Of a DNA stretch of 64,000 bases, positions 13,801 to 33,814 are shown in pieces. The stretch lies in the NCBI GenBank assembly GCA_000092065.1, contig CP000586.1. The stretch is one strand, 5' to 3'. Positions within the stretch are counted from its first letter, which is position 1. The number at the start of each line of letters is the position of its first letter. A model generated the notes under the pieces. It worked only from the letters and a program-made list of their open reading frames with translations. It was not told the DNA's origin and searched no databases. The position numbers were made by a program, and so were the translations under genes. The stretch comes from Ostreococcus lucimarinus (taxonomy: Eukaryota).

Positions 13801-14214
13801 CTCCCCAGCTCGCAGCCGCGCGCGAAACGCGTCCGTCTTCCCGCGCAGTTCATCATTTGTGAGACTCCGCACGTCACGATCCAGCGCTCTAACCGCATCG
13901 ACGACGCGCGTCTGCAGTTCTGCGATTTGCCTAGCGTCGCCGTCTCGCCAGGCGCGGTCGCGTGCGACCGACATCATCGCCGTCGTCGTCGACGTCGACG
14001 CGTGCTCGAGCTCGTCATCGTCGAAGGACGCCGACGCCGACGCACCGATCGATCGCGCGTCGCCGTTCGTCGTCGCTCGCGCGCGCACGGCGGCGATTCG
14101 TCGTCGACTTTGAACCATCTTGCGGTGCGTCGTCGGTCGCCCGTGGTTCGCGCGCGCGCGCGGCACGCGCGACGGTGCGAGCGGCGCGTGCGAGCGCACC
14201 ATACCACGCGCCAT
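10801..14214 (-). CDS. secA: Preprotein translocase ATPase SecA, nuclear-encoded plastid type, with an N-terminal presequence.
   Basis: The core LHEGWVAEMSTGEGKTLVATLPAYLNALDGKGVHVVTVNDYLAARDATEMGRIYRFLGLTVGVIQSDM is textbook SecA DEAD-motor sequence. An N-terminal extension of ~100 aa is Arg/Ala/Ser-rich. The start is ATG. Confidence 0.9.
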   Translation of the reverse strand: MARGMVRSHAPLAPSRVPRARANHGRPTTHRKMVQSRRRIAAVRARATTNGDARSIGASASASFDDDELEHASTSTTTAMMSVARDRAWRDGDARQIAELQTRVVDAVRALDRDVRSLTNDELRGKTDAFRARLRAGETLDDILVEAFAVVREASTRELGLTHFDVQLIGGALLHEGWVAEMSTGEGKTLVATLPAYLNALDGKGVHVVTVNDYLAARDATEMGRIYRFLGLTVGVIQSDMTSEERQRAYACDITYVTNTEIGFDYLRDNMANDAEELVVLTRPFNFAIVDEVDSVLIDEGRNPLLITGTGDVNDDDQYVTAAKVAESLIPGRDFKVVLKEKTAELTDEGMLHAEQILGVNDLWDAKNPWGKYILLAVKARALFIKDIDYIVRDGKVIIVDPSTGRVQMNRRWNDNLHQAVEAKEGVEINGENSIIASISYQCLFKLYKKLSGMTGTASTESEEFFTTYNLGVARVPTNKPNLRIDSQTSLFLNSIPRWYAVVDLIERCHAEGRPVLVGTTSVENSEILSDLLSRHRWVTNDGRKIAGVPHELLNARPQYAAREAEIIAQAGRKYAVTIATNMAGRGTDILLGGSPVGLAKRALKEKLWPAFDLGDIGDAALLMYVDLSQEAQITLNQAEHVATQSTASAGSLSEEQAEELLVEALVKAEELLRRGEKPGAWDKDRVLMHFVNVAAYHVLRDCQKQCSDEREEVREVGGLQVIGTSIHDSRRVDNQLRGRAARQGDPGSTVFCVSAEDELLQTYMPGWGNDKLWMFAGVDEYSPIVSDIVDGQLRMVQKQIEDYLSSHRQSTFESDRVLDGQREAVYKLRRQILLSSQSALRERLFKYMARVVDDACERAGVSGNVHPKKWNYEQLLSELRCVFIGRTDFIALTRGLPTGDRPHYLPGVNAVGENSIRDAILSGGDLPIPHEMPPLKVAPAIVLAAIAGVEIVMPEGVVGPLMEDTEPEASDAAINERLRNRLAPPSDVRDSQEYIRRWSKGWHAAKARRLRSYLTESAVQLYLDRFARLAAKDYDRAELESVERLWALRAIDELWQRHLVQMEVLRSSVQVRSFGHLDPKDEFRIDGARAFVSLVESIREAMVKNIFFFIGASVEPTTNFDVDENEDAQERQTQNE

Positions 14215-16869: not shown

Positions 16870-16871
16870 AT

Positions 16872-16902
<31 letters not shown>

Positions 16903-18483
16903 ACGGCGACGCGGTGCGCGCGCGACGCGCGCGCGCGACGGGGAGGGACGACGACGGCGACGCGCGCGCGCGCGCGCGCGACGACGGCGGCGGCGACGCG
17001 CGACGTCGACGTCGTCGTCGTCGGCGCGGGCGTCAGCGGCCTGTCCACGGCGCACACGCTGAAGATGAAAAAGATGCGCGAGGCGACGGTGCTCGTCACG
17101 GAGGCGCGCGAACGCGTCGGAGGGAACGTCACGAGTCGATCGGATGGGACGTACACGTGGGAGGAGGGACCGAACTCGTATCAGCCGGGGGATGCGATCT
17201 TGACGCTGGCGTGCGACGCGGGGATGCGCGACGACATCTTGCTGGCGGATCCGGCGAGCAATCGGTACGTGCTGTGGGACGGGAAGCTGCGGATTTTACC
17301 GCACAGCATTGAGAGCGCGGTGTTGGGGGATTTTTTGACGTGGCCGGGGAAGATTCGGGCGGGATTGGGGGCGATCGGAATCAGGCCGCCGGCGCCGGGC
17401 AAGGAGGAGAGCGTGAAGGAGTTCGTGAGCAGAAACTTGGGGACGGAGGCGTTCGAACGTCTGATCGAACCGTTTTGCTCGGGCGTGTACGCGGGTGATC
17501 CCGCGGCGCTGTCGTCCGTGGCGGCGACGGGGCGCGTGCAACGACTCGAACCGCTCGGCGGGTCGCTCGTCGCCGGCGCCATCATGGCGCAAAAGGAGGC
17601 GGCGCAGAACAAGAAACCGCGCGATCCGCGCCTTCCCGAGGTCAAGGGCCAAACCGTCGGCTCGTTCCGCGGTGGTTTGAAGACGTTCCCGGAGGGTTTG
17701 GCCAAGCAGCTCGGCGACGACGTCGTCAAGTGCAACTGGAAGCTCGTCGGCGTCTCGAAATCCGCCGAGGGCGGGTACGAGTGCGCGTACGACACCCCAG
17801 AAGGGCCGCAAACGGTGAGAACGAAGTGTTTGTTGCTCACCGCGCCGGCTTACGTCGCGGCCGAGATGGTTAAGGACATGGCTCCCGCGGCGGCGACGGC
17901 GCTGAACAAGTTTTACTACCCACCCGTCGCGTCGGTGACGATTTCCTACAAGAAGGATTCGTTCCGCCTCGACGGCACCAGCGCGTTACCCGAAGGCGGC
18001 CTCACTGGCTTCGGTCAGCTCCACCCGCGCTCGCAAGGCATTCGCACGCTCGGCACGATTTATAGCTCGAGCCTGTTCAAGGACGACAAGCGTCAACCGG
18101 ACGACGAGTTCATGATTTTGAACTACATCGGCGGCGCGCGCGACGTCGCGATTAAAGACTTGAGCGAGGAGGAGCTCGTGAAGCAAGTCCACGAGGACGC
18201 CTTGAAGACAATCTTGAAGCCCGGTACGCCGCTTCCCAAGGTTGTCGGCGTCAAGGTTTGGGAAAAGGCCATCCCGCAATTCAACCTCGGCCACTTGGAC
18301 GTCCTCGCCGAAGCCGAGAACGCGTTAACCGCCGCCGACTGCGGCGAAAAAGACGGCTTGTTCCTCGGCGGCAACTACACCGCGGGCGTCGCGTTGGGTC
18401 GATGCGTCGAGTTCGGCATCGAGCAAGCGGACGAAGTCGTGGCGTACTTAAACGCCGCATCCAAGAAGGCCGTCGCGGTGTGA
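16870..18483 (+). CDS. PPOX: Protoporphyrinogen IX oxidase (PPOX/HemY) with a poly-Thr/Ala/Arg presequence.
   Basis: FAD-binding VVVVGAGVSGLSTAHTL...VLVTEARERVGGNVTS is present. PPOX-like conservation runs throughout. A TGTAA motif lies 10 nt past the stop. Confidence 0.85.
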
Positions 18484-18748: not shown

Positions 18749-21700
18749 ATGGGCGTCCCGAAGTTTTTCCGATGGCTCGCCGAGCGCTACCCGCTGCTCC
18801 AGCAAGAGATCGCGGGAAATCAGATCCCGGGGATCGATAACTTGTACCTGGACATGAATGGTGTCATTCACAACTGCTCGCACGGCGCAGGGACGGATGT
18901 GAATACGCGAATGACTGAAGACGAGATGATGTCCAAGGTTTTCGCGTATTTGGATCATCTGTTTCGAATGACGCGACCGAATAAGATGCTGTACATGGCG
19001 ATCGATGGCGTGGCACCGCGAGCGAAGATGAACCAACAGCGGAGTCGACGATTTCGAAGCGCGGCGGAGGCGGCGAAGGACCGCGAGGAAGCGCGTGCGA
19101 GAGGCGAACCGGAGCCGGAGGGCGAACCGTTTGATTCCAACTGTATCACGCCGGGGACGGAGTTCATGGCGCGGTTGACGGAACATTTGAAATTCTACGT
19201 GCGTAAGAAGCAAACGGAAGATCCACTTTGGGCAAAGGTGACGGTGATATTGTCTGGGCACGAAGTCAGAGGTGAGGGCGAGCATAAAATCATGGAGCAC
19301 ATTCGATGGGCGCGAACGCAGCCGGACTGGGAGCCGAATCAAACGCACTGTTTGTACGGCCTCGACGCCGATCTTATCATGCTTGCTCTCGTCACGCACG
19401 AACCTCACTTTTGTTTGCTTCGTGAGGTCGTGAAGTTTGGCGGCGGCGAGAAAGGGCAGCCGAGCCGGGAGATTTTGTCCAATCCCACCGACGACGGCTT
19501 CATCTTGTTGCACATCGGCTTGTTGCGCGAGTACTTGGATTTAGAATTCCGCGAAAAGAATCTTCCGTTCGGATACGAGCTCGAGCGCGTCATCGATGAC
19601 TTCATCTTACTGTGCATGCTCGTCGGGAACGATTTCTTGCCCGCTCTGCCGACGCTGAACATCGCCGAGGGCGCGCTGAACACGCTCTTCAAAGTGTACC
19701 ACGACACGTTGCCGATGCTTGGAGGTTATATCACTGGCGATGAAGGGGGGGGTACTTTTAACCCTGAACGTTTGGAGAAGATCATGAGCATCATGGCGAC
19801 GTTCGAGCGACAGGTGTTGGAAGAGCGCGCGATGGATGTCGAGAAGGAAGAGGAGAAGAAGTCTCGACGAAAAGGTCGCAACGGTGGTTCCGCGTCCGAT
19901 CTCACTCCCGAGGAGAAGTTCGACAAGGATTTGAGTGAGATGAGCGACACCGAAGGCGTGCCACAAGTTTCTGCCGACCCGACAATGATGAACGCTGCGA
20001 AGCGGGCGCTGATTCTCGAAGGTGGCGAGGAGGGCTTGCAAGCGTGGAAGGATACGTACTATCGCGAAAAGCTCGGTTTGAAGATTGGCGAAGCTGCACC
20101 GCTGGGTGAAATTAGACAAGCTTATTTCGATGGTTTGAACTGGGTCTTGCGTTACTACTATCGTGGTGTTGCGTCCTGGACTTGGTACTATCCCTACCAT
20201 TACGCGCCGATGGCGAGCGACTTGTGCGCCGGCATGGGCGGTCTCACGTCTGAGTTCGATTACGGCGAACCGTTCAAACCTTTCGAGCAGCTCATGGCTG
20301 TACAACCACCATCGAGCTCCAAGTTACTCCCCGAGCCATTCCGCCACTTCATGGAAGATCCGCAGTCGCCCTTGGCTGAGTTCTTCCCGGAAGACATCAA
20401 AGTTGACTTTGAAGGCAAGCGCAACGACTGGGAAGGCGTCGTGCTGTTGCCCTTTTTGGACGCCGATCGCTTGAAGGCTGCGGTCGCTTCCGTGGAACCG
20501 TCGCAGCTGACTGCTGGTCAAATCGCGCGAAATGTGCCCGGTAATCTTATATATTTCAACCACGCCCCCTCGGGCGCGGGAGACGTGCAGAGCACTTTGC
20601 CAAAGTCCTTTGCAGGCTTGTTTCCGGCGAAGAGTAAGATGACCATGCGCATGCCGCCGGGCGAGTTCCCGGATGAGATGAAGTGCTTCGGTGGCGAAGA
20701 TTCCGTGTTTCCAGGAACGACGCTTGGTTTAGACAGTCCAAGCGGCTTCCCGACGATCCGCACACTCCCCGTGTCGGGGTCTTTGAAAACCGCAGGCGTC
20801 AAAGTGTTTGGAAACGCGTCGAAGAAGGAATCGCTCATCATTCAAATCAACGGCGTAGACGTAAACTTGGTCGGAAACTTGGCGGGAGTCGGTGCGAAGG
20901 ACATTGCTCCAAGTCTCGTGAATAAACGTGTGCAAATTAAGTGGCCATATCTCCAAGAAGCTCTCGTCGTGGGCGTTTCCGACTCGAAGGAACGCATCGT
21001 TCCCGTTATCGGCAAGCCAAACGAGTTAGCAAGCAAGCCGAATAATGCCACGGAATGGAGCGCGGACATGGAAAAGGTTACCCGCGAGTATCTCGAGAAG
21101 TACGGTGTTAGTGCAGGGCGTTCGAACATTGCGCTACATTGCCGTGCGTGCGAAGGGCTCGTGAGACATCCGGACGGATCTTTGCAGAAGCGTTTCTCCA
21201 AGACAGAGATGACGGTGCCGATTCAGCTCGTCATCGCCAAGCACAACGCCCCTTCGACGCGTATGGACGAGCGTCCCGCGCTCGACGTCGGTGAGTCTAC
21301 TGGTGATTTCGTCGACGGTGATGTCGCGCTGTTCCTGGGTCGCTCAAACTTTGGAGCGCTGGCTGTCGTCACGGATGTTTCCCCCGCTGGTTTGGGCGTC
21401 TCGCTTCACCCCGTGCCTCTGGACACTGGCTTGTCGCGCCGCATTTTAAAAGGCGTTGGACAACGTTACATGGCCAGCGGTGAGATGGCACGTAAACTAG
21501 GAGTGAACCCGAAAGTTATCGGTTGCCTCACGGGCGCGGTCTGGGTGCAAGAGAGCGCCAAGGCGTCTCGCGGCGATCGCGTCGACGTCGGTCTGAACTT
21601 GAAGCACAATGGTAAAATGTTGTGCGTCGCGGGCTACTGTCGCCCGACACAAGGCGACAAGCCGGGTTGGGAATACAGTCAAGAGGCGTTGCGAGTGTTG

Positions 21701-23026
21701 CAAGAGTACAAGCGTGCGCATCATTGGGTTTTCGCCGCGGTCGATGCCGTTGATGACATGCGCGACGGAATCAACCTCGAAGACTTCATGGCGGACACGC
21801 CCGAGGCTGGACGTCTCGCCGCAGTCAAGGGCGTGAAGGCGTGGTTAAAGGCGCATCCCATCGCACGCCGGCCGCTTGTGCCAGCTTCGTCACAAGTCGC
21901 GACGGAGGAAGCGATTCGAACGCTCGTGAGCACGACCGCCGGTGGTGGTAAGCAGCCCAAGGTGGTCGATCTCGAGGGCGTGTCTCCGCTCTTGCTCATG
22001 CGCCCGGTGACCGAAGGTGCCATCGTCGACTTGTACGCCGGTGGTGATTTCGAACTCGGCGATCGCGTCATCATGGTAGGAGACAGTGGTCAACCCGCGT
22101 TTGGTTCGCGCGGCGCGATCGTCGCCGTGCACACGTACACGGACGCGCACACGCAAGACGCGCACGCTGAATCTGTGGAAGTGTTGTTCGACGAAGACTT
22201 TGTCGGCGGTAACGATCTTCACGGTATGATTCCAAACAAACGCGGCGCCATGCTTCCGGTGGCGCAGCTCATCAACTTGTCGCACCCGCCTGCAATGCCG
22301 AACCTCGGCAGCGCGGCGCCCAAGGTTGTGGTTAAAGACGCCAAGGGTGATATGAGCGCTCCGACGCAGTGGAGCGAGCGGGCGCCCAAGATCGAACGCG
22401 AAGTCGTCGTGCAGCCGAAACTCCCCGAGAAGGACAGCAAGGGCTTCGCCAGCGCGAAGGGCGCTGGTCGGGGCAAGGCGAAAGCAAGCGCCGCTCCGTC
22501 ACCAGCGATGATTCCGAGTAACGCGCGCATGCTCTCGATGTTGAACAACGCCAAGATTGCCTCCGTCGAAGCCAAGGCGGCCAAGCCGAAGAAGGCACCG
22601 ATGAGCGTGGCCGAGCTCGAGGCGCAAATGCTCAAGATGATGTCGCCTCCGAAACCACCGGCCAAGCCCGCGGATGGGTTGAAAAAGAAGCCGATGAGCA
22701 TCAAGGAGTTGGAGGAGAGCATCTTGGCCGCCGCCGCCTCTGGCGACGCGCCGCCCGCGCCGCCGGGCCCCAAACCGACCGAATCCCCCAACCCTCCGCG
22801 CAAGCCGAGAACGAAGAAACCAGTCGCCGCCGAGCCCGCCGCAACGCCACCGCTCCCTCCGACCCCACCACCGATGCCATCCGCCGCCATGCTGTCGAAA
22901 ACCGCCGCGAACGACGCGTCCGAACCCGCGTCGAGCGCCGAAGCCGAAGCCGAAGCCGAAGCCGAAGCCAAGCCCGCGACTCGCCGCATGGTTCCCCGCT
23001 TCCTTCTTCGCACCGGTAAATCGTGA
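18749..23026 (+). CDS. XRN: 5'-3' exoribonuclease, XRN1-like, with a long low-complexity Pro/Ala/Lys-rich C-terminus.
   Basis: The XRN N-terminal signature MGVPKFFRWLAERYPLL...LYLDMNGVIHNCSH...GEGEHKIMEHIR...LYGLDADLIMLAL is present. The ORF is continuous for 1425 aa. Confidence 0.9.
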   Translation: MGVPKFFRWLAERYPLLQQEIAGNQIPGIDNLYLDMNGVIHNCSHGAGTDVNTRMTEDEMMSKVFAYLDHLFRMTRPNKMLYMAIDGVAPRAKMNQQRSRRFRSAAEAAKDREEARARGEPEPEGEPFDSNCITPGTEFMARLTEHLKFYVRKKQTEDPLWAKVTVILSGHEVRGEGEHKIMEHIRWARTQPDWEPNQTHCLYGLDADLIMLALVTHEPHFCLLREVVKFGGGEKGQPSREILSNPTDDGFILLHIGLLREYLDLEFREKNLPFGYELERVIDDFILLCMLVGNDFLPALPTLNIAEGALNTLFKVYHDTLPMLGGYITGDEGGGTFNPERLEKIMSIMATFERQVLEERAMDVEKEEEKKSRRKGRNGGSASDLTPEEKFDKDLSEMSDTEGVPQVSADPTMMNAAKRALILEGGEEGLQAWKDTYYREKLGLKIGEAAPLGEIRQAYFDGLNWVLRYYYRGVASWTWYYPYHYAPMASDLCAGMGGLTSEFDYGEPFKPFEQLMAVQPPSSSKLLPEPFRHFMEDPQSPLAEFFPEDIKVDFEGKRNDWEGVVLLPFLDADRLKAAVASVEPSQLTAGQIARNVPGNLIYFNHAPSGAGDVQSTLPKSFAGLFPAKSKMTMRMPPGEFPDEMKCFGGEDSVFPGTTLGLDSPSGFPTIRTLPVSGSLKTAGVKVFGNASKKESLIIQINGVDVNLVGNLAGVGAKDIAPSLVNKRVQIKWPYLQEALVVGVSDSKERIVPVIGKPNELASKPNNATEWSADMEKVTREYLEKYGVSAGRSNIALHCRACEGLVRHPDGSLQKRFSKTEMTVPIQLVIAKHNAPSTRMDERPALDVGESTGDFVDGDVALFLGRSNFGALAVVTDVSPAGLGVSLHPVPLDTGLSRRILKGVGQRYMASGEMARKLGVNPKVIGCLTGAVWVQESAKASRGDRVDVGLNLKHNGKMLCVAGYCRPTQGDKPGWEYSQEALRVLQEYKRAHHWVFAAVDAVDDMRDGINLEDFMADTPEAGRLAAVKGVKAWLKAHPIARRPLVPASSQVATEEAIRTLVSTTAGGGKQPKVVDLEGVSPLLLMRPVTEGAIVDLYAGGDFELGDRVIMVGDSGQPAFGSRGAIVAVHTYTDAHTQDAHAESVEVLFDEDFVGGNDLHGMIPNKRGAMLPVAQLINLSHPPAMPNLGSAAPKVVVKDAKGDMSAPTQWSERAPKIEREVVVQPKLPEKDSKGFASAKGAGRGKAKASAAPSPAMIPSNARMLSMLNNAKIASVEAKAAKPKKAPMSVAELEAQMLKMMSPPKPPAKPADGLKKKPMSIKELEESILAAAASGDAPPAPPGPKPTESPNPPRKPRTKKPVAAEPAATPPLPPTPPPMPSAAMLSKTAANDASEPASSAEAEAEAEAEAKPATRRMVPRFLLRTGKS

Positions 23027-23224
23027 TCTGAGATTTGATTCGTAGAGACGTCGTCTCGACGGCGTCGGTATAACACGTTTGTAGTAGATCTGTACGCGTC
23101 TCGCTCGCGCCGTCCTCGCTCGGAGGGTTTAGGCCTCGCTGGCTGCCCGCTTATCCATCATCGCATCTTGTCGCCCGTCGCCCGCTTCGCGCGCGCACTT
23201 CGCGTCGCTCGCGGTCTCGACGCG

Positions 23225-24013
23225 ATGTTCGCGCGCACGACGTCCACGCCCGCCGCCCTCGCGCGCGCGACGCCTCGCGCTTCGCGCGCCGCGCCGCGCA
23301 CCGCCGCCGCGCGCCCGTCGTCGTCATCGATCGCGCGCGTCGGCGTCGCCGCGCGCGCGCCTCGCGCGGTGCGCGCGCCGACCGCGCGCGCCGACCGAAC
23401 CGCCGTCGTCTCGCGCGGCTTGTTCGACGGCGATAAGGACGAAGGCGGCACCGCGACGGCGCGCGTGAGCACGGACGCGGTGATGATCGACCCGGTGGTC
23501 GGCGCGAAACGCTTCAGCAACTACTTCTGGGCGGGCGTCGTCACCGCGGGCAGCACGGGATTCCTGCTCACCGGCGCGTCGGCGTACCTGCACCACAACC
23601 TGGTGTTTTTCCTCGACGCGACGGACATCAAGTTCTTCCCGCAGGGATTGGTGATGTCGTTTTACGGCGTCGCCGGCGCGATGCTCGCGACGTATCTCTG
23701 GTTGACGATTTCCTGGGACGTCGGCGCCGGATACAACGAATTCAACAAGGATGAGGGAATCATGCGAATTTTCCGCTACGGGTTCCCGGGGAAGAATCGT
23801 CGGGTGAATCTGGTGAGCGATCTCGCCGACGTGCAGGCGGTTCGCGTGGAGATCAGCGAGGGCGTCAACCCGCGGCGCGTGGTGTACGTTCGATGCAAGG
23901 GCAAGCGCGACATCCCGCTCACCCGCATCGGGCAACCGCTGACGCTGGCGGAGGTGGAGCAGCGCGCGGCGGATTTGGCCAAGTTTTTGCAGGTTCCGAT
24001 CGAGGGTCTTTGA
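23225..24013 (+). CDS. ycf4: Photosystem I assembly protein Ycf4, nuclear-encoded with a chloroplast transit peptide.
   Basis: The C-terminal 180 aa is highly Ycf4-like: KRFSNYFWAGVVTAGSTGFLLTGASAYL...FFPQGLVMSFYGVAGAMLATYLWLTISWDVGAGYNEFNKDEGIMRIFRYGFPGKNRRV...VQAVRVEISEGVNPRRVVYV...IPLTRIGQPLTLAEVEQRAADLAKFLQVPIEGL. It is preceded by ~85 aa of Ala/Arg/Ser/Thr-rich presequence beginning MFARTTSTP. The 23168 start of the ORF track is TTG; the first ATG is at 23225. Confidence 0.85.
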   Translation: MFARTTSTPAALARATPRASRAAPRTAAARPSSSSIARVGVAARAPRAVRAPTARADRTAVVSRGLFDGDKDEGGTATARVSTDAVMIDPVVGAKRFSNYFWAGVVTAGSTGFLLTGASAYLHHNLVFFLDATDIKFFPQGLVMSFYGVAGAMLATYLWLTISWDVGAGYNEFNKDEGIMRIFRYGFPGKNRRVNLVSDLADVQAVRVEISEGVNPRRVVYVRCKGKRDIPLTRIGQPLTLAEVEQRAADLAKFLQVPIEGL

Positions 24014-24121
24014 CGCATCCTCGTCCTCGCGTCCGCCTTTGCTTTAATCATTGATTTATTCAACCTTAGCGCACCACATTCGCCGCTTCGTTCGCGCGCC
24101 TCAGTCCGCGACGCCCGCGCG

Positions 24122-25276
24122 ATGCCGCGCGAGCGCGTCCGCGACGTCACCGCCGTCGACGTCGACCTCGCGCGCGCGCCGCGCGACGTCCTGACGCGCC
24201 TCGCCGACGAATTGCGACCGCGACTCGACGCCGCCGCGCGCGCCGCGCGCGACGCCTCGCGCGTGTTCTCGCGCGAGCGCGCGCTCCTGGACGCGCTGCG
24301 AAGGAAATCGCGCGCGCAGCACCGGGCGTCGAAGCATCACGGCGCGCTGACGCGCGCGTGCGCGCGCGGGAGGACGTACGACGCGCAGGAGGCGGTGGCG
24401 AAGCTCGAGGCGTTGGCGCGAGACGTCGACGCGTGCGCGCGCGACTCGCGGTTGGCGTACGGAAACGATGCGCTCGTCGTGCCGGCGCGCGCGCGCGCGG
24501 ACGAGGCGATGCGAGCGGCGTGCGCGGCGTGCGCGGTCCTGAGCGAGCTGCAGGGAGCGGGAGAGGATTGCGTGGAGGCGTTCGCGGGGCAGCTCGGTCG
24601 CGGGTACTTCATGGCGCTGAGCGCGACGGCGACGGCGTGCGCGAGTCGGGTGCGGTGCGAGAGCGCGCGGGTGTTGCGGGCGCTCGTCGGCGCGTATAAC
24701 GTCGTGGTGGACGTTCGGGAACACTTACCGCCGCCGGGAAGGTACGACGCGGCGTTCGGGCGACGGCCGCCGGCGGAGTTGCGCGTGGCGACGGCGGCGG
24801 ACGGCGGCGTGCGCGCGACGCCCGTGGGCGACGACGAGGTGCGCGCGGACGAGGAATTGGACGTGTTTTGGGCGTCGGCCGTATCGAACGCGCGAGAGGG
24901 CGCAGAACTGAGCGCAGATGTGAACGTGGAGGCGGACGACGAGCTGAGCGAGCTCGGCGTTCGCGTCGATCGCGACGACGTCGCCGAACGCGACGTCATC
25001 AGGGTGGCGAAGCAGTCGCAAGTGCCTCAGGCTAAGGCGCGAAAATACGAGCGCACTGTGAGTGTGGCGTCGCCATTCGGCGCGCTCACCGCCGCTCCCG
25101 CTGTTTTAAACCCATTCGCGCCGAAAAAACGTCGAAGAAAGAAGAAGGGCGGCGGCGAGGAGCCGCCGACGGCGGGGAAAAAGAAGAAACCGAAGCGGAG
25201 CGACGCGCCAAAAACTGCCGCAGACGCGTTCGAGCGATTGCGTCAAATAAGCTCGTACGGAGGCGGGCCCGACTAG
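24122..25276 (+). CDS. Hypothetical protein, probably nuclear, with a C-terminal KKRRRKKK nuclear-localisation-like patch.
   Basis: ATG-initiated ORF of 384 aa. Composition is non-repetitive in the N-terminal two-thirds. An acidic stretch and then a basic patch follow. No family was recognised. Confidence 0.4.
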   Translation: MPRERVRDVTAVDVDLARAPRDVLTRLADELRPRLDAAARAARDASRVFSRERALLDALRRKSRAQHRASKHHGALTRACARGRTYDAQEAVAKLEALARDVDACARDSRLAYGNDALVVPARARADEAMRAACAACAVLSELQGAGEDCVEAFAGQLGRGYFMALSATATACASRVRCESARVLRALVGAYNVVVDVREHLPPPGRYDAAFGRRPPAELRVATAADGGVRATPVGDDEVRADEELDVFWASAVSNAREGAELSADVNVEADDELSELGVRVDRDDVAERDVIRVAKQSQVPQAKARKYERTVSVASPFGALTAAPAVLNPFAPKKRRRKKKGGGEEPPTAGKKKKPKRSDAPKTAADAFERLRQISSYGGGPD

Positions 25277-25396
25277 CGTAGATTAGCGTAGAAATAGTGT
25301 GGTGGTGTACAATACAAAATGCGCGACGACCGAGCACGTTCGTTTGTTCGTTCGTTTGCGCGTCAAACGTCAATCAAGTATCAATCGACACCGCGC

Positions 25397-26137
25397 TCAG
25401 CTCATGAGCGCGAGTATCTCGTCTCTGAAAAGCAACCACTGCCCCGCGATTTCACGCCCGACGTCGCGCGTCAAGCGCGCGTCGTCATACATGACCGCCG
25501 CGGCGATCGCCATCCAAAATACCGCCCACAACCCGGCGAGCGCGAGCGCCACGCGCGTGGTCGCGCCCACCACCACACCGACGCACATCACGAACGTCTC
25601 CGGCGTCCATCGTTTCACGTTCGCGCCGCGTTCGCCCTTCGCGACAGCGACGGCGTCGCCATCGTCGTTCGCCCCGCGACCGGCGATTTCGCACGCCTCT
25701 GGCGACGCCTCGAACGCCGCGTTCTCCCGCGTCGACCACGTCGTCTTCGACCGTTTCACCGCGCTATCGATGTCGCCGTCGCCGTGACGCGCCACGCGAT
25801 CGTCCGCATCGCGCGTCACGAGCGCTTTCCGTTCCGCCTTGACCGCGCGTTCCAACGCTTCGATGCGTCGCTCGTGCCTTTCCGTCATCGCGTCCAGCGC
25901 GTTCGCCATCTCTTCGAGCTCGCGTCGGCTCGCCCGCGCGAGCTGCGTCGCCTTGTTCGCGTCCGCGGAAACGGCGTCTTTGACGTTACGCAGGCGCGTG
26001 CTGAACGTTTCGAGCGCGTCGTCGACGGCGCGTTGAAGCGCGTCGAGACGGACCGAGAGCGCGTCGTCGGCGGCGGTCGTCGTTCGCGCGCGCGCGTCGT
26101 CGCGCGCGGGCGCGCCCGCGAGCGAGACGTCGTGCAT
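25397..26137 (-). CDS. Hypothetical tail-anchored coiled-coil protein with a single C-terminal TM helix.
   Basis: ATG start. The central region is heptad-like and charged (LEEMANALDAMTERHERRIEALERAVKAERKAL). The C-terminal hydrophobic segment VMCVGVVVGATTRVALALAGLWAVFWMAIAAAV suggests a tail anchor. Confidence 0.45.
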   Translation of the reverse strand: MHDVSLAGAPARDDARARTTTAADDALSVRLDALQRAVDDALETFSTRLRNVKDAVSADANKATQLARASRRELEEMANALDAMTERHERRIEALERAVKAERKALVTRDADDRVARHGDGDIDSAVKRSKTTWSTRENAAFEASPEACEIAGRGANDDGDAVAVAKGERGANVKRWTPETFVMCVGVVVGATTRVALALAGLWAVFWMAIAAAVMYDDARLTRDVGREIAGQWLLFRDEILALMS

Positions 26138-26272
26138 CGTCGTGTCGTTACGTTCGAGCGCGTTTTCGCGACGACGAGGTCGTCGCGCGTCGCCGTGTGC
26201 CGTGGGAGACGAACCGACTCTTTGCTGTCTCGTCGCCGAATCGGCGACGCGCGCGCGACCCGAGCGCCGCGC

Positions 26273-27619
26273 TTAATCGTACTCCACACCGGCGAACGCG
26301 AGGCCCAAAGCCGGTGCGGGCGGAGCCGCGGCCCGACGCTCGCGCGACCGGGCGATTCTGAGCAGGACGTCGTCGTCGCCGGCGAAGACGGCGGCTTCGC
26401 GAATCGTCGTGGCGACGAGACAGCGAATCAACTTGCGCAAGAAACGGTCTGCGACGAGCTCGATGACGATGACTTCGTCGGCGTCGATGTCGGTGATGTC
26501 GATGGTGTCGTCGTGAGCGTCGTTTCGGCTTTTCGAGCGCCGAACGCCGGCGGTGACTTTGGAGTCGTTGTCGCTGTCGGCGCCGTCGCCGGGCGGCGAA
26601 GGCAATTTCGCCTCGAACGCCCTCGCGACGCGAAACGTGACGACGGAACTCTTCCCAGGCGGCGTGCCTCGCGCGAAGGCGTGCATATCGATCGGCGCGT
26701 TCGCGCACTCGCGCACGAGCGCGGCTAAGATTCGATCGATGATGCGCGCGTCCAAATCAGCCTTCGGCGTGCGCGACTCGCGAAACGCCTGATTCTTCGG
26801 CAAGCAATACACGTACCGTCGACTCTTCGCCGCGAATGTCGCGTGAAACGCCGAGCCCGTCTCGCGCACGTCCGACACGCGCAACAGACCCGCTTTGCCC
26901 GGCGCTGAATCCTCATTCACCAACCGCTCAATCTCCGCCGCGGAGATGGCGTCCGACTTGCTCCAAAGCGATACGCAGCTGGCGAGCGCGCTCACGCCGC
27001 GATCCGTCCTCCCCGCCGACGGCGTCGGGCGCGTCTTATCCAACACCGGTCGCAGCGCCAACTGCAACGCCGCCGACACCGACGCGCACCCCGGCTCGAA
27101 CGTCCCGTCGTACGCGAAATCCCTCGACGCGTTCCACGCGAAGCCCGCGAACGACGGCCCGTGATACGTACACTTCGCCGCGAACGTCCTTCGTCCTTCC
27201 CTGCGTCTTCGCCCCCCGCTCGCGCCCGCGTCGTCGCCGCTCGCGAACACGATTTCCGCCGCGCTCAATCCGAGCTCGCGCAGGCACGCGTCGCCTCGCA
27301 CGCACCGCCTGAAGAATCGCTCGACGCCGCGCCACGGCCTGTCGTCCGCGAACGCGCTCTGCTGCACCGGGTCCCAGCGCCCGACGTTGAACTCGCATCC
27401 GGCCGTCGCGCCGTCGTCGAGGACCAGGGTTTGACACGGATGTCGCGTCGCGACGCGCGCGTCGTCGCTCGCGTTCGCGTCGCTCGCGTCGCTCGCCCGC
27501 GACGTCGCGCCGACCGGCGGCGGGACGCGCGCGGTCGCCATCGACCCGCGACGCGCGCGCGCGCGCGCGGCGCGCGCGCGCGACGTTCGAGACGCTCGCG
27601 CGACGCGCGCGAGACGCAT
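26273..27619 (-). CDS. tRNA pseudouridine synthase, TruA/PUS1 family.
   Basis: The catalytic motif AGRTDRGVSALASCVSL matches the RTD.GVHA consensus. ...AKSRRYVYCL matches the ..R.Y.Y motif. The N-terminal KCTYHGPSFAGFAW matches the Y.G..F.G.Q-type start. The start is ATG. Confidence 0.6.
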   Translation of the reverse strand: MRLARVARASRTSRARAARARARRGSMATARVPPPVGATSRASDASDANASDDARVATRHPCQTLVLDDGATAGCEFNVGRWDPVQQSAFADDRPWRGVERFFRRCVRGDACLRELGLSAAEIVFASGDDAGASGGRRRREGRRTFAAKCTYHGPSFAGFAWNASRDFAYDGTFEPGCASVSAALQLALRPVLDKTRPTPSAGRTDRGVSALASCVSLWSKSDAISAAEIERLVNEDSAPGKAGLLRVSDVRETGSAFHATFAAKSRRYVYCLPKNQAFRESRTPKADLDARIIDRILAALVRECANAPIDMHAFARGTPPGKSSVVTFRVARAFEAKLPSPPGDGADSDNDSKVTAGVRRSKSRNDAHDDTIDITDIDADEVIVIELVADRFLRKLIRCLVATTIREAAVFAGDDDVLLRIARSRERRAAAPPAPALGLAFAGVEYD

Positions 27620-27716
27620 GCGCGCGCGCGAGGACGCGCGGGCGCGGCGTCGCGCGCCGATGTGCGACCGCGCGCGCGTCCCGGTCGTTCGCTAACGGTC
27701 GTCACTCGACGCCGCG

Positions 27717-28172
27717 ATGCGCGACGCCGACGCCGCGAGCGACGGCGACGACGGCGCGAGCGCGTCGGAAGAGTCGGACTCTTCGTCCTCGGGCGCGCTC
27801 GGGGACGTGGGCGCGCGCGAGCGCGATGAATTCTTCGACGAGGGCGCGGATGCGGCGGACGAGCGCGCCGTCGTTCGCGCGCTCGGTGGCGCCGACGCGG
27901 CGACGACGGACGCGCGCCTGTCCTGCCCGGGGTGCTTCGCGCTGGTGTGCGTGCTGTGTCAGCGACACGAGCGGTACAAGGGGCAGTACCGCGCGGTGTT
28001 CGCGCGAGGGGTGGAGACGTCGACGACGAGCTGTCTGCGGCCGACGGACGACGACGGCGACGGCGCGGACGAAAGGTACAGGGAGGTGACGTGCGCGCAG
28101 TGTGGGACCGTAGTCGCGGTGCAGGATGATGATGACGTGTATCATTTCTTTAACGTGTTCAGCGCGGGGTGA
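27717..28172 (+). CDS. Small acidic protein with a C-terminal Cys/His motif resembling the E2F-associated phosphoprotein (EAPP) C-terminal domain.
   Basis: The motif LSCPGCFALVCVLCQRHERYKGQYRAVFARGV...VTCAQCGTVV is present. It follows an Asp/Glu/Ser-rich N-terminus. The start is ATG. Confidence 0.45.
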   Translation: MRDADAASDGDDGASASEESDSSSSGALGDVGARERDEFFDEGADAADERAVVRALGGADAATTDARLSCPGCFALVCVLCQRHERYKGQYRAVFARGVETSTTSCLRPTDDDGDGADERYREVTCAQCGTVVAVQDDDDVYHFFNVFSAG

Positions 28173-28296
28173 TGGTGAGTGATGGGATCGACGACGCGAA
28201 CGCGGCGGGACGGGACGGCTGCTATTTACGTCGTCGCCGAGTAAATTTCTCGTCGCGAGACGTCATTCGTGCGCGCGCGACGAAAACGGCGCGACC

Positions 28297-29931
28297 ATGC
28301 GGAAACGTGCTGACGTCGGTGGATCGATGGCGTACGAGACGATGACACCGGCGTCGCACGGTGAGGGCGAGGACGACGCGACGGCGACGAGCGAGTCAAA
28401 CGCTTTGACCAACGGGATTTTCAAAAGCGGAGATACACGTAAACACGCGCGCGCGGAGACGCCACCGACGCTTCGGGATGCTGCGTGGGACTGGATAAGC
28501 GTACAAGCATGCATCGTCGCAGGCATCATCGTGATAACTGGCTACTTTTCCTTCATATCCACCGGTACGTGGCGCAAGTGCGTGAAATCTCTCGACGTAG
28601 ACCTGCGTGATGCTTCGGGGCGAGAAGAAGTCATTCGAACGTTTCTACGCTGCACTTTCGCGCGCGAACGAGGTAAAAACTATCGACCGTGGCGAATGGG
28701 TGACTTTTCCGTGCTCTTCGTGCGGCTGTCGACGATCACATTTTACGGCGAGGTGATTTTTCACCAGATGAGCGCGTGGCACGTCTCAAAATATCGTAAG
28801 TGGCGCACAAAGTTCGCCGTGCAATCGTTCGCGCAAATGTACATCGTTTACTTTGTCATGATATCGATTTTGGGGTATCACTCGACATATTCTCACATTG
28901 TCGTCCTGAACTCCTTTAGTGCGCTCTTCCTTTGCGGTGCGACGGCGAAGGAGTTTTGGAACACAAAAGGTTTGAGTTGGTTCTGGACGTACTTTTTTGG
29001 ACCTGGCATCATCGGTAGGCCAGTGGTTGAATTCTTCCTCGTCATCGTCGCCGATCCGAACGTTAGCGCGCCTCTCAAGCTCGCCGTGCGGTTCATTTTT
29101 CTGCCCTTACTGTGGGAAACTTTTCGCGGTTTTGAAAGGCACTTCACGAGGTTGAATCCGTCTCCTGGGCCGTGCCTTAATCTTCCGTATTTCATCTCTA
29201 GCACGCTCCAGGAGTCCTTCGTCTCGAGGTATGTGATGTTTCTGCTCTCTGCGGGCGGTGCGGTGAAAAGCATGGCAACCGTGCAGGCGATACTGGCTTT
29301 ACACGAACTCATGATGAACGTCGTGCAGAAGGATCGAGACGTGCACTTGGTTAAGTTATTCCTCGGAAAACAGTCCGCGGAAGCTCTGCTCGTGTCGCGC
29401 AAGCAGCACGATATCGTTGCCTTAAACTCAATCGTCTCTTCATTCGCAGAGATTTGTGCAATCATCGTGATTTCTCTGTACTTGTATGTCTTTCGCATGG
29501 CGAGCGAAGGCAACGAGGACGTCGTCGACTTGAAGGCGTACGGTGTGCAGGCGATAAACTTGATAGCGATCGAAATGGTGCTTTCGTTCTTCATCATGTA
29601 CGTTCAGCAACGGTTCCACGGTATACGACACGGCGATGTTTTCCCTAAAGGGTATTTTTTACGCAAGGGAAGATGGCTCGCCGTGAGCTATAAATTCGTC
29701 GTTTTTCTGTGGATCACCGCCATGATGGCGCACAAGGTGACAATTTATCTCGTTGGTAATCAGTTCCACAAGTACCTGTGCCCGCGTATCAACGATGATG
29801 GGAGCGTCTTCACCTTTCAATGTTCGACAGAGGATTACAAACTCGCGCCAGGAGGGTTTTACTACAACTCGGAGGCGTGGTTGATTCAACAGTACGACTA
29901 TCCCGTCGCCGTTTTGTCGGACAAGGGGTAG
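28297..29931 (+). CDS. Hypothetical multi-pass membrane protein, ~10-12 predicted TM helices, no recognisable family. It is encoded at markedly lower GC than its neighbours.
   Basis: ATG-initiated 544-aa ORF, rich in F/I/L/Y/W hydrophobic stretches: FVMISILGYHSTYSHIVVLNSFSALFL, WFWTYFFGPGIIG, AIIVISLYLYVF. No conserved catalytic motif was recognised. Local GC is roughly 50% against 65-75% around it. Confidence 0.5.
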   Translation: MRKRADVGGSMAYETMTPASHGEGEDDATATSESNALTNGIFKSGDTRKHARAETPPTLRDAAWDWISVQACIVAGIIVITGYFSFISTGTWRKCVKSLDVDLRDASGREEVIRTFLRCTFARERGKNYRPWRMGDFSVLFVRLSTITFYGEVIFHQMSAWHVSKYRKWRTKFAVQSFAQMYIVYFVMISILGYHSTYSHIVVLNSFSALFLCGATAKEFWNTKGLSWFWTYFFGPGIIGRPVVEFFLVIVADPNVSAPLKLAVRFIFLPLLWETFRGFERHFTRLNPSPGPCLNLPYFISSTLQESFVSRYVMFLLSAGGAVKSMATVQAILALHELMMNVVQKDRDVHLVKLFLGKQSAEALLVSRKQHDIVALNSIVSSFAEICAIIVISLYLYVFRMASEGNEDVVDLKAYGVQAINLIAIEMVLSFFIMYVQQRFHGIRHGDVFPKGYFLRKGRWLAVSYKFVVFLWITAMMAHKVTIYLVGNQFHKYLCPRINDDGSVFTFQCSTEDYKLAPGGFYYNSEAWLIQQYDYPVAVLSDKG

Positions 29932-30040
29932 TGGCGGTCGCGTGGTTGTTTGTCCGCGAGCTACAAGCGAAACAAACTGTCACAAAGTAGAAGATGTAAT
30001 AGCGATAGGTTTACTGAAACACACCTCCCGATAAAATAGT

Positions 30041-33000
30041 TTACAAATCGCGCGCACTTCTATCCTCGGGTAGCGTGGGTAAAGACAAGCTCTCTAGACT
30101 CACGCCGCGCGAATGCGTCGGAGTGCGATCTTGGCTACTCCGGCGACCTCCTGGGACGTCGGGAAATTGCGTTTCTTTGCCCCAAACATCAGCGAAAGAC
30201 AGTTTACGACGGTGTTTTGGCGCCTTGATCTCCTCCGCTTTCACCGGAGCGATTCCTAAGCTTTCAACGACGACGCCGTGTAAAGTACCACTTCTTCGAG
30301 GCGACTTGAGTTCAACGTCCACTTTTTGGCGAGGCTCGACGCCCTCCTTTTCGCTCTTTCCGCCGGACGACCTCCGGATAGCTGCGTCTCTATCTTGCAC
30401 CTCATCGGCTAAAGTCGGCCTAAAATATCGCATGAACATGATGGACGCAATGTAGGGCCAGATGGAGATGATCGCCACCGGCCAAAACCCGAGCCAGTAT
30501 TTCATCACCTGAGACGTTATCGGTAAAAACGTCTTGTAACTGTAAGTGGAGTAGTACACTTCCGTCTCACTTAACGCCATGTTCAAGATGAACCACAGTA
30601 GGATGGAACCCCATATGACTACGTGATGAAATAAAGTCCAAAAGTTGCACAACAATCCGAGTTGTACGTTCAAAGCGATGAGGAGCGCAGTGTACAAAGT
30701 CGTTCCGACCTCCCACAGCCCAAACGGCTGTCCGCTTTCCGCGTCCGCTTCGCCCGTGTGGATGCCGTAGAAGACCATAACGAAGCTCACAACCGCGACG
30801 TAAATACCGTACGCAAACCAAGTCAAACGACGGCGCGACGTAAACTGTGAGTTCGCCTGTGTTTCTCTGTACAGTTCCGGAACCTCCATCGAACTCTGCG
30901 GTTTCACGTCTTGGTCAAGGATACCGAGCGCTAGTACCGGAAAGTTGGTGAAGAAAATGTTGAACGACGACATCAGCCAATCGTTGTACACAGTCTGTCC
31001 GCTGGCTTTGGTGTGCATGTTGAATATGAAAATAGTCAAACCAAAAGCGATGTTCTTAAAGAAGAAGTACGTCACCATGCGTGCAATTCGCTTGTAATTG
31101 TATCGACCGTGGAGGAGAAGAAGGCGCTCCAAGAAGCGGAACTGGGCAAATGCGAAATCCGACGCCATGACTGCTTGCATACCCTCTTGGCCACTGATGC
31201 CGACACCGATGTGAGCGGCTTGAATCATCCCGACATCGTTCGCACCGTCACCGATAGCGAGCGTGATGCGTCCAGAATCCTTCACGAGAGTCGTCACGAG
31301 CGCCTTTTGTAAAGGCGACACGCGGCAGCAAATAACCGCGCTGCACTTGGTTCCCAGGGCTAGGAAGCTTCCGGCGAGCTCTGGTTTGAGAGCCAGCGTG
31401 AGCGAACGACCGTCGATAACCATACCGACGTCGGCGTCGAGCTGAATCGCGGCTTCGGCGTCTACTAAACCAGCTTCAATCTGCTGCTTCACTGAGGCCA
31501 TGGCGAGGCGTTGAAATGTCGCGCTGTCGATCTCGCCGTTGTTTTCTTGTTTAACCAAATCTTCGACGTTGATGACGCGGACCTTCATTTGCGGAGTGAT
31601 GAGCGAGCACGCTTGCCCGATGTTTATCGCAGTATCTTGCTTGTCACCGGTGAGTACCCAAACTGCGATGTTTGCCTTCATGAGTTGTTCAATGGTACGC
31701 GGTACGCCGACTTGCAATTTGTCTTCAATCGCAGTCGAGCCCAACAGCGTGAGGTCTTTCTCGATGAGATTCGCCACCTCTTCCAGTTTCTCTTCACGAT
31801 TTTGGAGAGCTTGGCTCGCCTCGATGAACTTTTCATTCCACGAAGCGTACTCAGAAGGGTTGATGACTCGACGCGCGAGGCACAACGTGCGCAAACCGCA
31901 CTTTGCCCACGCATCCATGTGCTCCTGGGTCGCATCCTTGAATTCATTGCCGTTCTGAGACAGTCGCTCATAAATGACGTTGTCGGCACCCTTGGTGAAG
32001 AGAAGGATACGTCCATCGTTTTTGCTCTTCACGATGACGCTCATGCGCTTTCGAGCCGACGTGAACTCCAGCGTGTTGAGAATGGTGTACGTCACGTCCT
32101 CCGTCCCCGGTCGCCCGTCATTGAATGCTTCTTCCTCAACCGTGATTGTCGTTGCCGAACGATGCTTGAAGAAGAAGCCGAAGCGCTTTGCCGCGACGAC
32201 GAACGCAAGTTCATCCGGGCTCTCCGCCTGATAAACGATTTCAGACGGGACAGGATTTCCTTCAGGAATAACCGTTTGACAAATGCCGAGTACACGGAAA
32301 AAACCGCGACAAATGTCAGCGTCTGATCTCTTATGCCACGCTCCGTTCTCAAGTCGCTTATCGCGGAAATTGAACGATGGCTCGATTGCGTCACCATTTT
32401 TTGGTGGCAACGGCTCGCCCTTGCGCTGCATGATGGCTCGTTCTATCTCCGTCACACCCTCGCCGTACGCGACGCCAGCGATCGAGCACTTGAAGAACTC
32501 CATCGTGTTGCACGTCAGGGTACCAGTCTTATCACTCAGCACGGTGTGTACCATACCGAGCTCTTCATTCAGGTTGGTCGTTCTCGCGAGCGCGGGAGTG
32601 TCCGTCTCTTCGTGGTACATCGCTCGATCCTTGTTCAGGAAGACAAATCCTTGGAAAACCTTCACCAACTCCAAAGAAACGTAAAGAGAGATTGGAATAA
32701 GATAGCCGTATAGGACGTAGGACGTGAAAAAGGCAATAACACCAACGCTGGTTCTGTTATCCGGATTGAACGTAACATCCTGTAAGTGCACGGCCAAGTA
32801 CCAATGGTCCTTCGCGCCGCTACCAATCCAGGCGGAGCAATAAATCGCCGAGGCCGTGCTCATAACGAACAGCGCTATCAACATGGTGATGACGACCCCA
32901 TCCATTTGCTTTTCGAGGTGCGAGCGCTTAGACGGGGTATCCGTGGCGTTCATCATAACCTTTGAATCGTGTCCAGTGTACACGCACACGCCGACGATCC

Positions 33001-33814
33001 ATTCCGTGTTGCGAAGACTTGAACCTCGCAGCAACATATTTGAAGGATTAAGCGAGACTTTCTTACCGTTCGGGTACAACGGCGCGCCGATGGACAAGTT
33101 TCCAGAGTACGTGTACAAAGAGTTGTTTGGATGCTCGCATTCGATGAACGTCTTTCCCTCGGACATCTTCGCAAACGTTTCGCGATCAAACTTCAAGTCC
33201 GCGACGTCAACCGAACGCTTGGTTTTCAAGTTTGTTTCCCCGTCCAAGTTCTTCGTCTCGACGTAACACGCGTTTTCGTCACTCGAGCTATCGAGCATGA
33301 TGAGGTCGCAAGGGAAAAACTGGTCTCGCACCACGCGCACGATGTTGCCGACCTTCAAGTCGTGCCACTCGCAGTTCTCAAACGACTCCCCGTTAAATCG
33401 TTCAGTCGTCGACGTGTTTTGGACGCGATCTTGCACGTGTCTCTTGTAATCTTCTACCGCTTCCTTAGCCAGCGACAGCCCAATCACCATAGTCAAGGGC
33501 GTCCACGTCGTGTACGGCTGGATCGGCGAGACGGTCGGAAAGAGCGAAATCACCGCCACGGACAAGAAATACAGGTTCGCCACCCGACGAAACTGTTCGT
33601 ACAGCCCCTTCGGCGCGAAAGTCACGACATTGTACTTCCCCGTGCAGATGGAATTATCCTTACACTTAAACTCCTTCGCCAAATCCTTCCCGTCGTTCGG
33701 TTCGCCCGCGCCGAGCACCAATTTGCGCGCCGTCGGCTTTGCCCTTTTCCGTCGCAAACGTTCGACCATCGTCGGCCTGCGCTCCAGCGCCGCCGCTGCG
33801 GTCGTCGGCGCCAT
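30041..33814 (-). CDS. P4-type ATPase, a phospholipid flippase of the ALA/Drs2 family.
   Basis: P-type motifs DKTGTLTCNTMEF (phosphorylation site), TGDKQDTAINIG and GDGANDVGMIQAAHIGVGISG are present. The P4 N-terminal GKYNVVTFAPKGLYEQFRRVANLYFL is also present. The 34189 start of the ORF track would overlap the upstream PreP gene; the first plausible ATG (MAPTTAAAALERRP) is at 33814. Confidence 0.85.
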   Translation of the reverse strand: MAPTTAAAALERRPTMVERLRRKRAKPTARKLVLGAGEPNDGKDLAKEFKCKDNSICTGKYNVVTFAPKGLYEQFRRVANLYFLSVAVISLFPTVSPIQPYTTWTPLTMVIGLSLAKEAVEDYKRHVQDRVQNTSTTERFNGESFENCEWHDLKVGNIVRVVRDQFFPCDLIMLDSSSDENACYVETKNLDGETNLKTKRSVDVADLKFDRETFAKMSEGKTFIECEHPNNSLYTYSGNLSIGAPLYPNGKKVSLNPSNMLLRGSSLRNTEWIVGVCVYTGHDSKVMMNATDTPSKRSHLEKQMDGVVITMLIALFVMSTASAIYCSAWIGSGAKDHWYLAVHLQDVTFNPDNRTSVGVIAFFTSYVLYGYLIPISLYVSLELVKVFQGFVFLNKDRAMYHEETDTPALARTTNLNEELGMVHTVLSDKTGTLTCNTMEFFKCSIAGVAYGEGVTEIERAIMQRKGEPLPPKNGDAIEPSFNFRDKRLENGAWHKRSDADICRGFFRVLGICQTVIPEGNPVPSEIVYQAESPDELAFVVAAKRFGFFFKHRSATTITVEEEAFNDGRPGTEDVTYTILNTLEFTSARKRMSVIVKSKNDGRILLFTKGADNVIYERLSQNGNEFKDATQEHMDAWAKCGLRTLCLARRVINPSEYASWNEKFIEASQALQNREEKLEEVANLIEKDLTLLGSTAIEDKLQVGVPRTIEQLMKANIAVWVLTGDKQDTAINIGQACSLITPQMKVRVINVEDLVKQENNGEIDSATFQRLAMASVKQQIEAGLVDAEAAIQLDADVGMVIDGRSLTLALKPELAGSFLALGTKCSAVICCRVSPLQKALVTTLVKDSGRITLAIGDGANDVGMIQAAHIGVGISGQEGMQAVMASDFAFAQFRFLERLLLLHGRYNYKRIARMVTYFFFKNIAFGLTIFIFNMHTKASGQTVYNDWLMSSFNIFFTNFPVLALGILDQDVKPQSSMEVPELYRETQANSQFTSRRRLTWFAYGIYVAVVSFVMVFYGIHTGEADAESGQPFGLWEVGTTLYTALLIALNVQLGLLCNFWTLFHHVVIWGSILLWFILNMALSETEVYYSTYSYKTFLPITSQVMKYWLGFWPVAIISIWPYIASIMFMRYFRPTLADEVQDRDAAIRRSSGGKSEKEGVEPRQKVDVELKSPRRSGTLHGVVVESLGIAPVKAEEIKAPKHRRKLSFADVWGKETQFPDVPGGRRSSQDRTPTHSRGVSLESLSLPTLPEDRSARDL

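Follow-up and report, generated by a model that had tools for sequence, protein, structure and literature searches.

A nuclear ycf4 gene with a likely chloroplast transit peptide in Ostreococcus lucimarinus

The ycf4 gene, its leader and its nuclear setting

We analyzed a 64,000-nucleotide stretch of contig CP000586.1 from Ostreococcus lucimarinus (assembly GCA_000092065.1), referred to below as the window, with a focus on its gene for Ycf4, the photosystem I (PSI) assembly protein. In most plants, algae and green lineages ycf4 stays in the plastid genome. The mechanical open reading frame (ORF) on the plus strand spanned positions 23168-24013 and started with TTG at 23168; the ATG nearest its 5' end, at 23225, gave a 262-aa product running from MFARTT to FLQVPIEGL (Table 1). 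This protein matched the Pfam profile PF02392 (Ycf4) with an E-value of 8.8e-77 and a score of 256.8 bits (cut-off, 34.7); the match spanned profile positions 2-170 of 170 and residues 85-253 of the product. It also matched the equivalog profile NF002712 (photosystem I assembly protein Ycf4) with 258.1 bits against a cut-off of 220, covering positions 4-188 of 188. Both matches are far above chance. Fifty-four of the 58 columns that are conserved in at least 95% of plastid and cyanobacterial Ycf4 proteins were identical in the window protein, and the four altered columns were all conservative replacements (S>A, R>K, S>A and W>Y). A sequence-only reading of the window had named a 262-aa Ycf4 product here, and these matches bore out its coordinates and quoted motifs. 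A search of PDB sequences with the protein found no related solved structure. Alignment and Kyte-Doolittle hydropathy placed both hydrophobic segments of the protein in line with those of plastid Ycf4, and the second predicted helix was clearly hydrophobic, with a mean of 1.51 and a peak of 1.2-1.6 over 19-residue windows.

The Ycf4 domain begins only at about residue 78-86, so the Ala/Arg/Ser/Thr-rich presequence of ~85 aa that the sequence-only reading had described from MFARTT onward is real. In an alignment of the best 120 Ycf4 homologues, from which the leader lengths were taken, the proteins P0001-P0055 either carried 65-160 additional N-terminal residues or were truncated calls of the same clade; from P0056 on, mostly ~5-20 residues preceded the conserved GSRR motif. 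Every nuclear-type homologue had an extension, 65-125 aa long, and the plastid and cyanobacterial proteins had none. The leader of the window protein consisted of 65% A+R+S+T overall. Its first 50 residues reached 74%, with 10 basic and no acidic residues, and the first acidic residue was D57, leaving residues 1-56 acid-free. The Ycf4 leaders of O. tauri, Micromonas pusilla and a Bathycoccus-like sequence likewise had no acidic residue in their first 50 aa. Between genera the leaders were only 18-36% identical, and pN was about equal to pS; the leader drifts almost freely in sequence while its composition is kept.

We compared the leader with other N-termini encoded in the window. Those of SecA, PPOX, PreP, NOA1, Twinkle and the DUF2389 protein contained 56-78% A+R+S+T and 0-3 acidic residues, whereas the cytosolic control N-termini of XRN1, TBCC, EF3, the flippase and CHD contained 14-50% A+R+S+T and 5-9 acidic residues. 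Since the ycf4 leader resembled the organelle leaders and differed from the controls, it has the signature expected of a transit peptide, and residues 1-56 are likely a chloroplast transit peptide. Residues 58-65 form a semi-conserved R-x-x-V-x-x-[RK]-[AG] stretch with an acidic patch behind it, and cleavage in this region, near residues 60-66, is plausible. Several organelle-targeted genes of the window open with Thr/Ala runs, namely PPOX (MTTTTTTTATTTAT, 16870-16915), PreP (STTTATTTTT, 34158-34230) and NOA1 (TTTTTTTAAG, 37601-37730). Such low-complexity leaders seem habitual in this genome.

The genes around ycf4 were those of a nuclear chromosome. Pfam identified, from the left, midasin, DUF1604/SURP, SecA, DUF2389, an MBOAT acyltransferase, PPOX and XRN1, followed by ycf4. 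To its right were two genes without a family, Eapp, a P4-ATPase flippase, PreP, a YqeH/NOA1 GTPase, a Twinkle-like protein and lipoyl synthase, and farther on a dual-specificity phosphatase, TBCC, JmjC, EF3 and a CHD remodeller. The layout was compact and intron-poor, and the GC content, taken per 2 kb, was 52-71%. The ycf4 gene itself had a GC of 0.68 and a third-position GC (GC3) of 0.87, inside the range of the neighbouring genes; the plastid-borne ycf4 in an rpl19-ycf4-cemA-petA contig (L011, encoding P0056) had a GC of 0.30. No plastid genes such as cemA or petA flanked the window ycf4 in the ORF list or the Pfam results. The DNA of the window is clearly eukaryotic nuclear, neither organellar nor bacterial. 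The sequence-only reading had assigned the gene a nuclear setting, GC and codon usage, and this held up, with midasin, XRN1, CHD, EF3 and TBCC in the window and a GC3 of 0.87. An organellar or contaminant contig with plastome-like GC, which that reading had named among the outcomes that would refute it, is not what the gene content and the GC of 52-71% indicate.

Relatives, selection and phylogeny

The closest named relatives of the window protein were the nuclear Ycf4 proteins of O. tauri and M. pusilla, and the group stood beside green plastid Ycf4 when plastid and nuclear sets were compared. The O. tauri orthologue is annotated as 'Photosystem I Ycf4, assembly' (XP_003079977/CEF98447) and is nuclear, on the 794-kb chromosome 6 (CAID01000006.2). 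Its domain was 92% identical to that of the window protein, with a dN/dS of 0.10 at a dS of about 0.7, a distance that points to an Ostreococcus species other than O. tauri as the source of the window. Its leader was alike in composition but only 36% identical in sequence. The current RefSeq model (XP_003079977.2), of 198 aa, begins at an internal Met and is leader-less. Translation from an in-frame ATG that lies 168 bp farther upstream (L001 7833-8597; CAID01000006.2 about 579182-579946) gave a 254-aa protein with the N-terminus MFTSVSAPTKVV, which aligned with the leaders of the other genera; for this reason the RefSeq model looks N-terminally truncated. The M. pusilla CCMP1545 protein (XP_003062175/C1N1T5, on a 952-kb scaffold) is also nuclear, with 273 aa, a leader and a domain 88% identical to that of the window; unlike the window gene, it has SecA and a dynein heavy chain as neighbours and not XRN1. 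The nuclear Ycf4 of M. commoda is XP_002507870. Some Micromonas-like ycf4 gene calls were fragmented, which may reflect introns. The plastid Ycf4 of Chlamydomonas, tobacco and other green plants and the cyanobacterial Ycf4 belong to the same family and have a layout of two helices and a soluble domain that the window protein is predicted to share; they differ in having 184-191 aa and no leader. Plastid ycf4 differs further in lying in AT-rich plastid DNA, in a psaI/rpl19-ycf4-cemA-petA cluster, and in that its protein is made inside the organelle.

Gene order was conserved around the gene. The window was collinear with O. tauri chromosome 6 over PPOX, XRN1, ycf4, the 375/384-aa gene, Eapp, a 545-aa gene and the flippase, and the order PPOX-XRN1-ycf4 also occurred in Bathycoccus-like contigs of 49% GC. 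In M. pusilla the order was SecA-ycf4-dynein heavy chain; in the window SecA sits four genes upstream of ycf4. This synteny fits a single old transfer event. The dynein heavy chain gene lay immediately downstream of ycf4 and on the opposite strand in M. pusilla and in the Bathycoccus-like contigs (L003 8979-16822, L004 8999-16909). In the Ostreococcus window (24014-25276) and in O. tauri a gene of 375-384 aa takes its place, and this looks like a local change of gene order beside the conserved XRN1-ycf4 pair. A protein identical to the window Ycf4 was present in NCBI, JGI, ENA and Logan assemblies, with entries in 386 index blocks. XRN1 and the downstream neighbours were the same in the four displayed occurrences, on long contigs from marine assemblies.

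We estimated dN/dS pairwise by the Nei-Gojobori method among the window gene, O. tauri, M. pusilla and a Bathycoccus-like sequence. Over the Ycf4 domain these four Mamiellales sequences gave dN/dS values of 0.07-0.12 at dS 0.7-2.6 and an identity of 82-92%. The domain is under strong purifying selection. In a genome-wide array study of O. tauri from 2010, the Ycf4 transcript grouped with those of chloroplast biogenesis genes in a late-night cluster.

To place the gene, we used a neighbour-joining (NJ) tree of the 177-column Ycf4 domain with 100 bootstraps on 48 sequences. Chlorokybus (P0062), Streptosarcina (P0078) and P0056 (from the plastid contig L011) were the green plastid anchors, and Rivularia (P0117) was the cyanobacterial anchor. 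The Mamiellales-like clade had a bootstrap of 100, as did all leader-bearing or nuclear-type Ycf4 together, and the nuclear and green plastid-type proteins were separated from the cyanobacterial type with a bootstrap of 100. The best leader-less matches to the window protein were P0056 and Chlorokybus, each 64% identical; Rivularia was 58% identical. This pattern fits one old plastid-to-nucleus transfer. Since the tree is distance-based and consists mainly of metagenomic sequences, it does not narrow the donor to a particular prasinophyte plastid. The two helices of the nuclear clade were less hydrophobic than those of the plastid and cyanobacterial proteins (P0056-P0120), with mean Kyte-Doolittle values of 0.97 versus 1.19 and 1.49 versus 1.85. 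This gap (P about 1e-13) would fit a barrier to relocation set by hydrophobicity, and it is not independent evidence because the nuclear copies represent one clade and one event and because GC is a confounder.

A second group of nuclear-type proteins (P0053, P0055, P0057, P0059, P0060 and P0061) formed a clade with the Mamiellales genes at a bootstrap of 100. Two metagenome scaffolds with a GC of 0.69 carried ycf4 of this group, L010 ('BUCK21-1', 5334-6576) and L013 ('GROS21-1', 6368-6988). The neighbours of the second-group genes were CD36, RWP-RK/NLP, Cullin-4 and SRP54, and the nearest named proteins to the Cullin-4 of L010 were those of land plants, at 62-63%. The ycf4 of L010 lacked an in-frame ATG, and upstream of it, in another frame, was an ORF resembling a leader (MAATSMRLALSPAAQ); together these suggest an intron, and the leader of this group is probably encoded on a separate exon. 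P0053 and P0055 occurred on short Logan contigs (L014-L016), and no poly(A) tails were seen on the short Logan contigs with P0053. It is conceivable, if on balance doubtful, that the relocation of ycf4 is older and wider than Mamiellales and that the second group represents deeper Mamiellophyceae (e.g. Monomastigales or Dolichomastigales) or another prasinophyte class. If so, nuclear ycf4 would be a synapomorphy of a larger clade, and the conserved SecA...PPOX-XRN1-ycf4 neighbourhood could be the place where the gene first inserted.

Other features of the window

The coordinates of ycf4, its parts and its neighbours are collected in Table 1. From the compact spacing of the genes, the 198 bp between XRN1 and ycf4 presumably house the ycf4 promoter and 5' UTR.

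Table 1. Positions of ycf4, its parts and other genes in the window
Feature	Position	Strand	Basis or remark
Nuclear ycf4 coding sequence, complete, 262 aa plus stop, intron-less	23225..24013	+	ORF, first ATG, Pfam and NCBIfam matches
N-terminal extension, residues 1-85	23225..23479	+	Alignment; missing from plastid and cyanobacterial Ycf4
Ycf4 domain, residues 86-262 (C-terminal 177 aa)	23480..24010	+	Pfam and NCBIfam profiles, conserved columns
Predicted transmembrane helix 1, YFWAGVVTAGSTGFLLTGASAY, residues 100-121	23522..23587	+	Aligned to first hydrophobic segment of plastid Ycf4
Predicted transmembrane helix 2, GLVMSFYGVAGAMLATYLWLTI, residues 141-162	23645..23710	+	Hydropathy peak
XRN1-type 5'-3' exoribonuclease, 1425 aa, upstream neighbour	18749..23026	+	Pfam XRN_N, XRN_M, D1, D2/D3, SH3
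Spacer from XRN1 stop to ycf4 ATG, 198 bp	23027..23224	+	Coordinates
384-aa protein, downstream neighbour	24122..25276	+	No confident Pfam family; syntenic with 375-aa O. tauri gene
SecA	10801-14214		Pfam
PPOX-type amine oxidase	16870-18483		Pfam
PreP	34158-37403		Pfam
YqeH/NOA1-type GTPase	37601-39457		Pfam
Twinkle-like primase-helicase, Toprim and DnaB_C	40988-43453		Pfam
Lipoyl synthase	44011-45267		Pfam

The sequence-only reading had also listed SecA, PPOX, PreP, LipA, NOA1 and Twinkle in the window and concluded that the region was enriched for organelle-targeted products. Pfam supported each of these identities, and the enrichment itself proved not significant. With 7-8 organelle genes among ~27, the binomial P was 0.29-0.16 at an assumed 20% of genes targeted, and it fell to 0.04-0.10 only if 15% of genes are targeted; we rejected the enrichment on these values. 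At the left end of the window, midasin-type AAA_5/AAA_lid domains extended over two minus-strand ORFs (2-3562 and 4441-7779) with a 172-aa ORF (3883-4401) between them. These could be parts of one very large gene with an intron or a frame change that runs past the left edge of the window. The GC content swung between 0.52 and 0.71 per 2 kb, as seen for instance at 6001-10000, 24001-28000 and 40001-42000 compared with 28001-34000. The highest GC coincided with poorly conserved or family-less genes and the lower GC with conserved enzymes (the flippase and a 544-aa gene).

Origin and meaning of nuclear ycf4

We consider it highly probable that the window gene is a functional nuclear ycf4 that moved once from a green plastid, no later than in the common ancestor of Ostreococcus, Bathycoccus and Micromonas (Mamiellales), and gained a transit peptide. 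This interpretation is based on the domain identity, the nuclear context, the leader composition, purifying selection, synteny and the position in the tree. The functional plastid-to-nucleus transfer proposed in the sequence-only reading is thus supported, with nuclear codon usage as a further point in its favour. Several observations weigh against this interpretation. The nuclear clade was sister to the sampled plastid-type green sequences and not nested within them (monophyly of the plastid type, 99), and most sequences in the tree were metagenomic proteins classed by length and a few anchors. The first predicted helix was weakly hydrophobic, with a mean Kyte-Doolittle value of 0.91. Our reading of the leader draws on its composition and on comparison, and such composition by itself does not separate plastid from mitochondrial targeting; we favour the plastid because of the function of Ycf4 in addition to the composition. 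The evidence for transcription comes from the O. tauri orthologue and not from the species of the window. Finally, the loss of plastid ycf4 in Ostreococcus and Micromonas is read from literature tables.

The plastid side of the question was approached through published gene tables. The thylakoid proteins scored by Sobotka et al. (2017) as plastid-encoded, nuclear-encoded or absent include Ycf4, which their Table S1 gives under the nuclear accessions XP_003079977.1 (O. tauri) and XP_002507870.1 (M. commoda); Ycf3 of both species, and PsbA, are listed under plastid YP_ accessions. The 75 genes common to all 12 of the 12 prasinophyte plastomes of Lemieux et al. (2014) include ycf1, ycf3 and ycf12 and do not include ycf4. 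A text match to 'ycf4' in the latter paper was in fact 'ycf47' and was discarded. A plastome survey (PMC7650654) counted Ycf4 as lost in six algal plastomes; its Supplementary File S4 records no cemA, which was ancestrally next to ycf4 in the plastid, for the plastomes of O. tauri and M. commoda. The two genes, ycf4 and cemA, may have departed from the plastome as a pair. The paper on the O. tauri organelle genomes is also said to have described a reduced plastid gene set. In the searchable full-text literature we found no explicit statement that the plastome of Ostreococcus or Micromonas lacks ycf4, and the searchable open-access papers contained no lengthy discussion of the nuclear gene. Loss of the plastid gene can also take another course. 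In Fabeae legumes (Lathyrus, Pisum) ycf4 is likewise gone from the plastome, being lost or pseudogenised, and Magee et al. (cited in PMC7058334) found none in the nucleus of the legumes. The legumes thus represent loss without relocation, whereas the window ycf4 was relocated and kept.

An origin by horizontal transfer from a cyanobacterium or a different alga, with later replacement of the plastid copy, appears improbable. The position of the nuclear clade as sister to the green plastid sequences, and not within them (plastid-type monophyly in 99 of 100 bootstraps), is the point in its favour, and under this sampling the donor is not pinned to a prasinophyte plastid. However, the GC-driven shift in composition of the nuclear copies would also yield a sister position. 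The bootstrap of 100 that unites nuclear and green plastid-type proteins against the cyanobacterial type speaks against a horizontal origin, as do the best leader-less matches, which were green plastid proteins (P0056 and Chlorokybus at 64%) ahead of Rivularia (58%). We gave still less credence to a non-functional insertion of plastid DNA (a NUPT or pseudogene) with the working gene still in the plastome. In its favour there is only the general fact that fragments of plastid DNA insert into nuclear genomes. Against it, the reading frame is intact, the GC3 of 0.87 is unlike plastid DNA, neither cemA nor petA flanks the gene, the added leader is alike in kind and the position syntenic across genera, and dN/dS is about 0.1 over a dS of 0.7-2.6. 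In addition, expression of the O. tauri orthologue follows a diel rhythm, and the published table gives nuclear accessions. This explanation is not tenable and is effectively refuted. That the window is organellar, cyanobacterial or contaminant DNA misread as nuclear has next to no probability: no point in its support was found, and it is refuted by the gene content, with midasin, XRN1, SURP, Eapp, TBCC, CHD and EF3 on both sides of ycf4 at a GC of 52-71%, by the collinearity of the PPOX-to-flippase region with O. tauri chromosome 6, and by the identical protein with the same neighbours on long contigs of many marine assemblies.

Under a single plastid-to-nucleus transfer, ycf4 would have moved from a green plastid genome to the nucleus in one event and there adopted nuclear codon usage and an N-terminal chloroplast transit peptide. 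A short promoter in the XRN1-ycf4 spacer would drive transcription, and translation would follow in the cytosol. With its basic, hydroxylated and acid-free character, the leader of ~60 aa would then direct import through the envelope translocons and be cut off in the stroma, leaving a mature protein of ~200 aa that would enter the thylakoid membrane by its two hydrophobic helices. According to a review, plastid-encoded Ycf4 is a scaffold for assembly of the PSI core; Chlamydomonas requires it, and Synechocystis and tobacco can do without it. From this review and from family membership, we infer a thylakoid location and a PSI assembly role for the window protein, which would scaffold the PSI core as its plastid-encoded counterpart does.

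A nuclear ycf4 in Ostreococcus and Micromonas is already known, because it is present in the GenBank annotation of O. tauri and Micromonas, in the 2017 table and in the 2010 O. tauri array study. Since the gene was thus annotated and tabulated for both genera, current understanding is unchanged. The gene can serve as a marker of Mamiellales-type nuclear contigs in marine metagenomes, and its slightly less hydrophobic nuclear helices are a data point for hydrophobicity as a limit on gene transfer. Nuclear ycf4 neatly illustrates the relocation of a predicted two-helix thylakoid membrane protein from the plastid to the nucleus, and is a case in which the supply of a PSI assembly factor is under nuclear, diel-regulated control.

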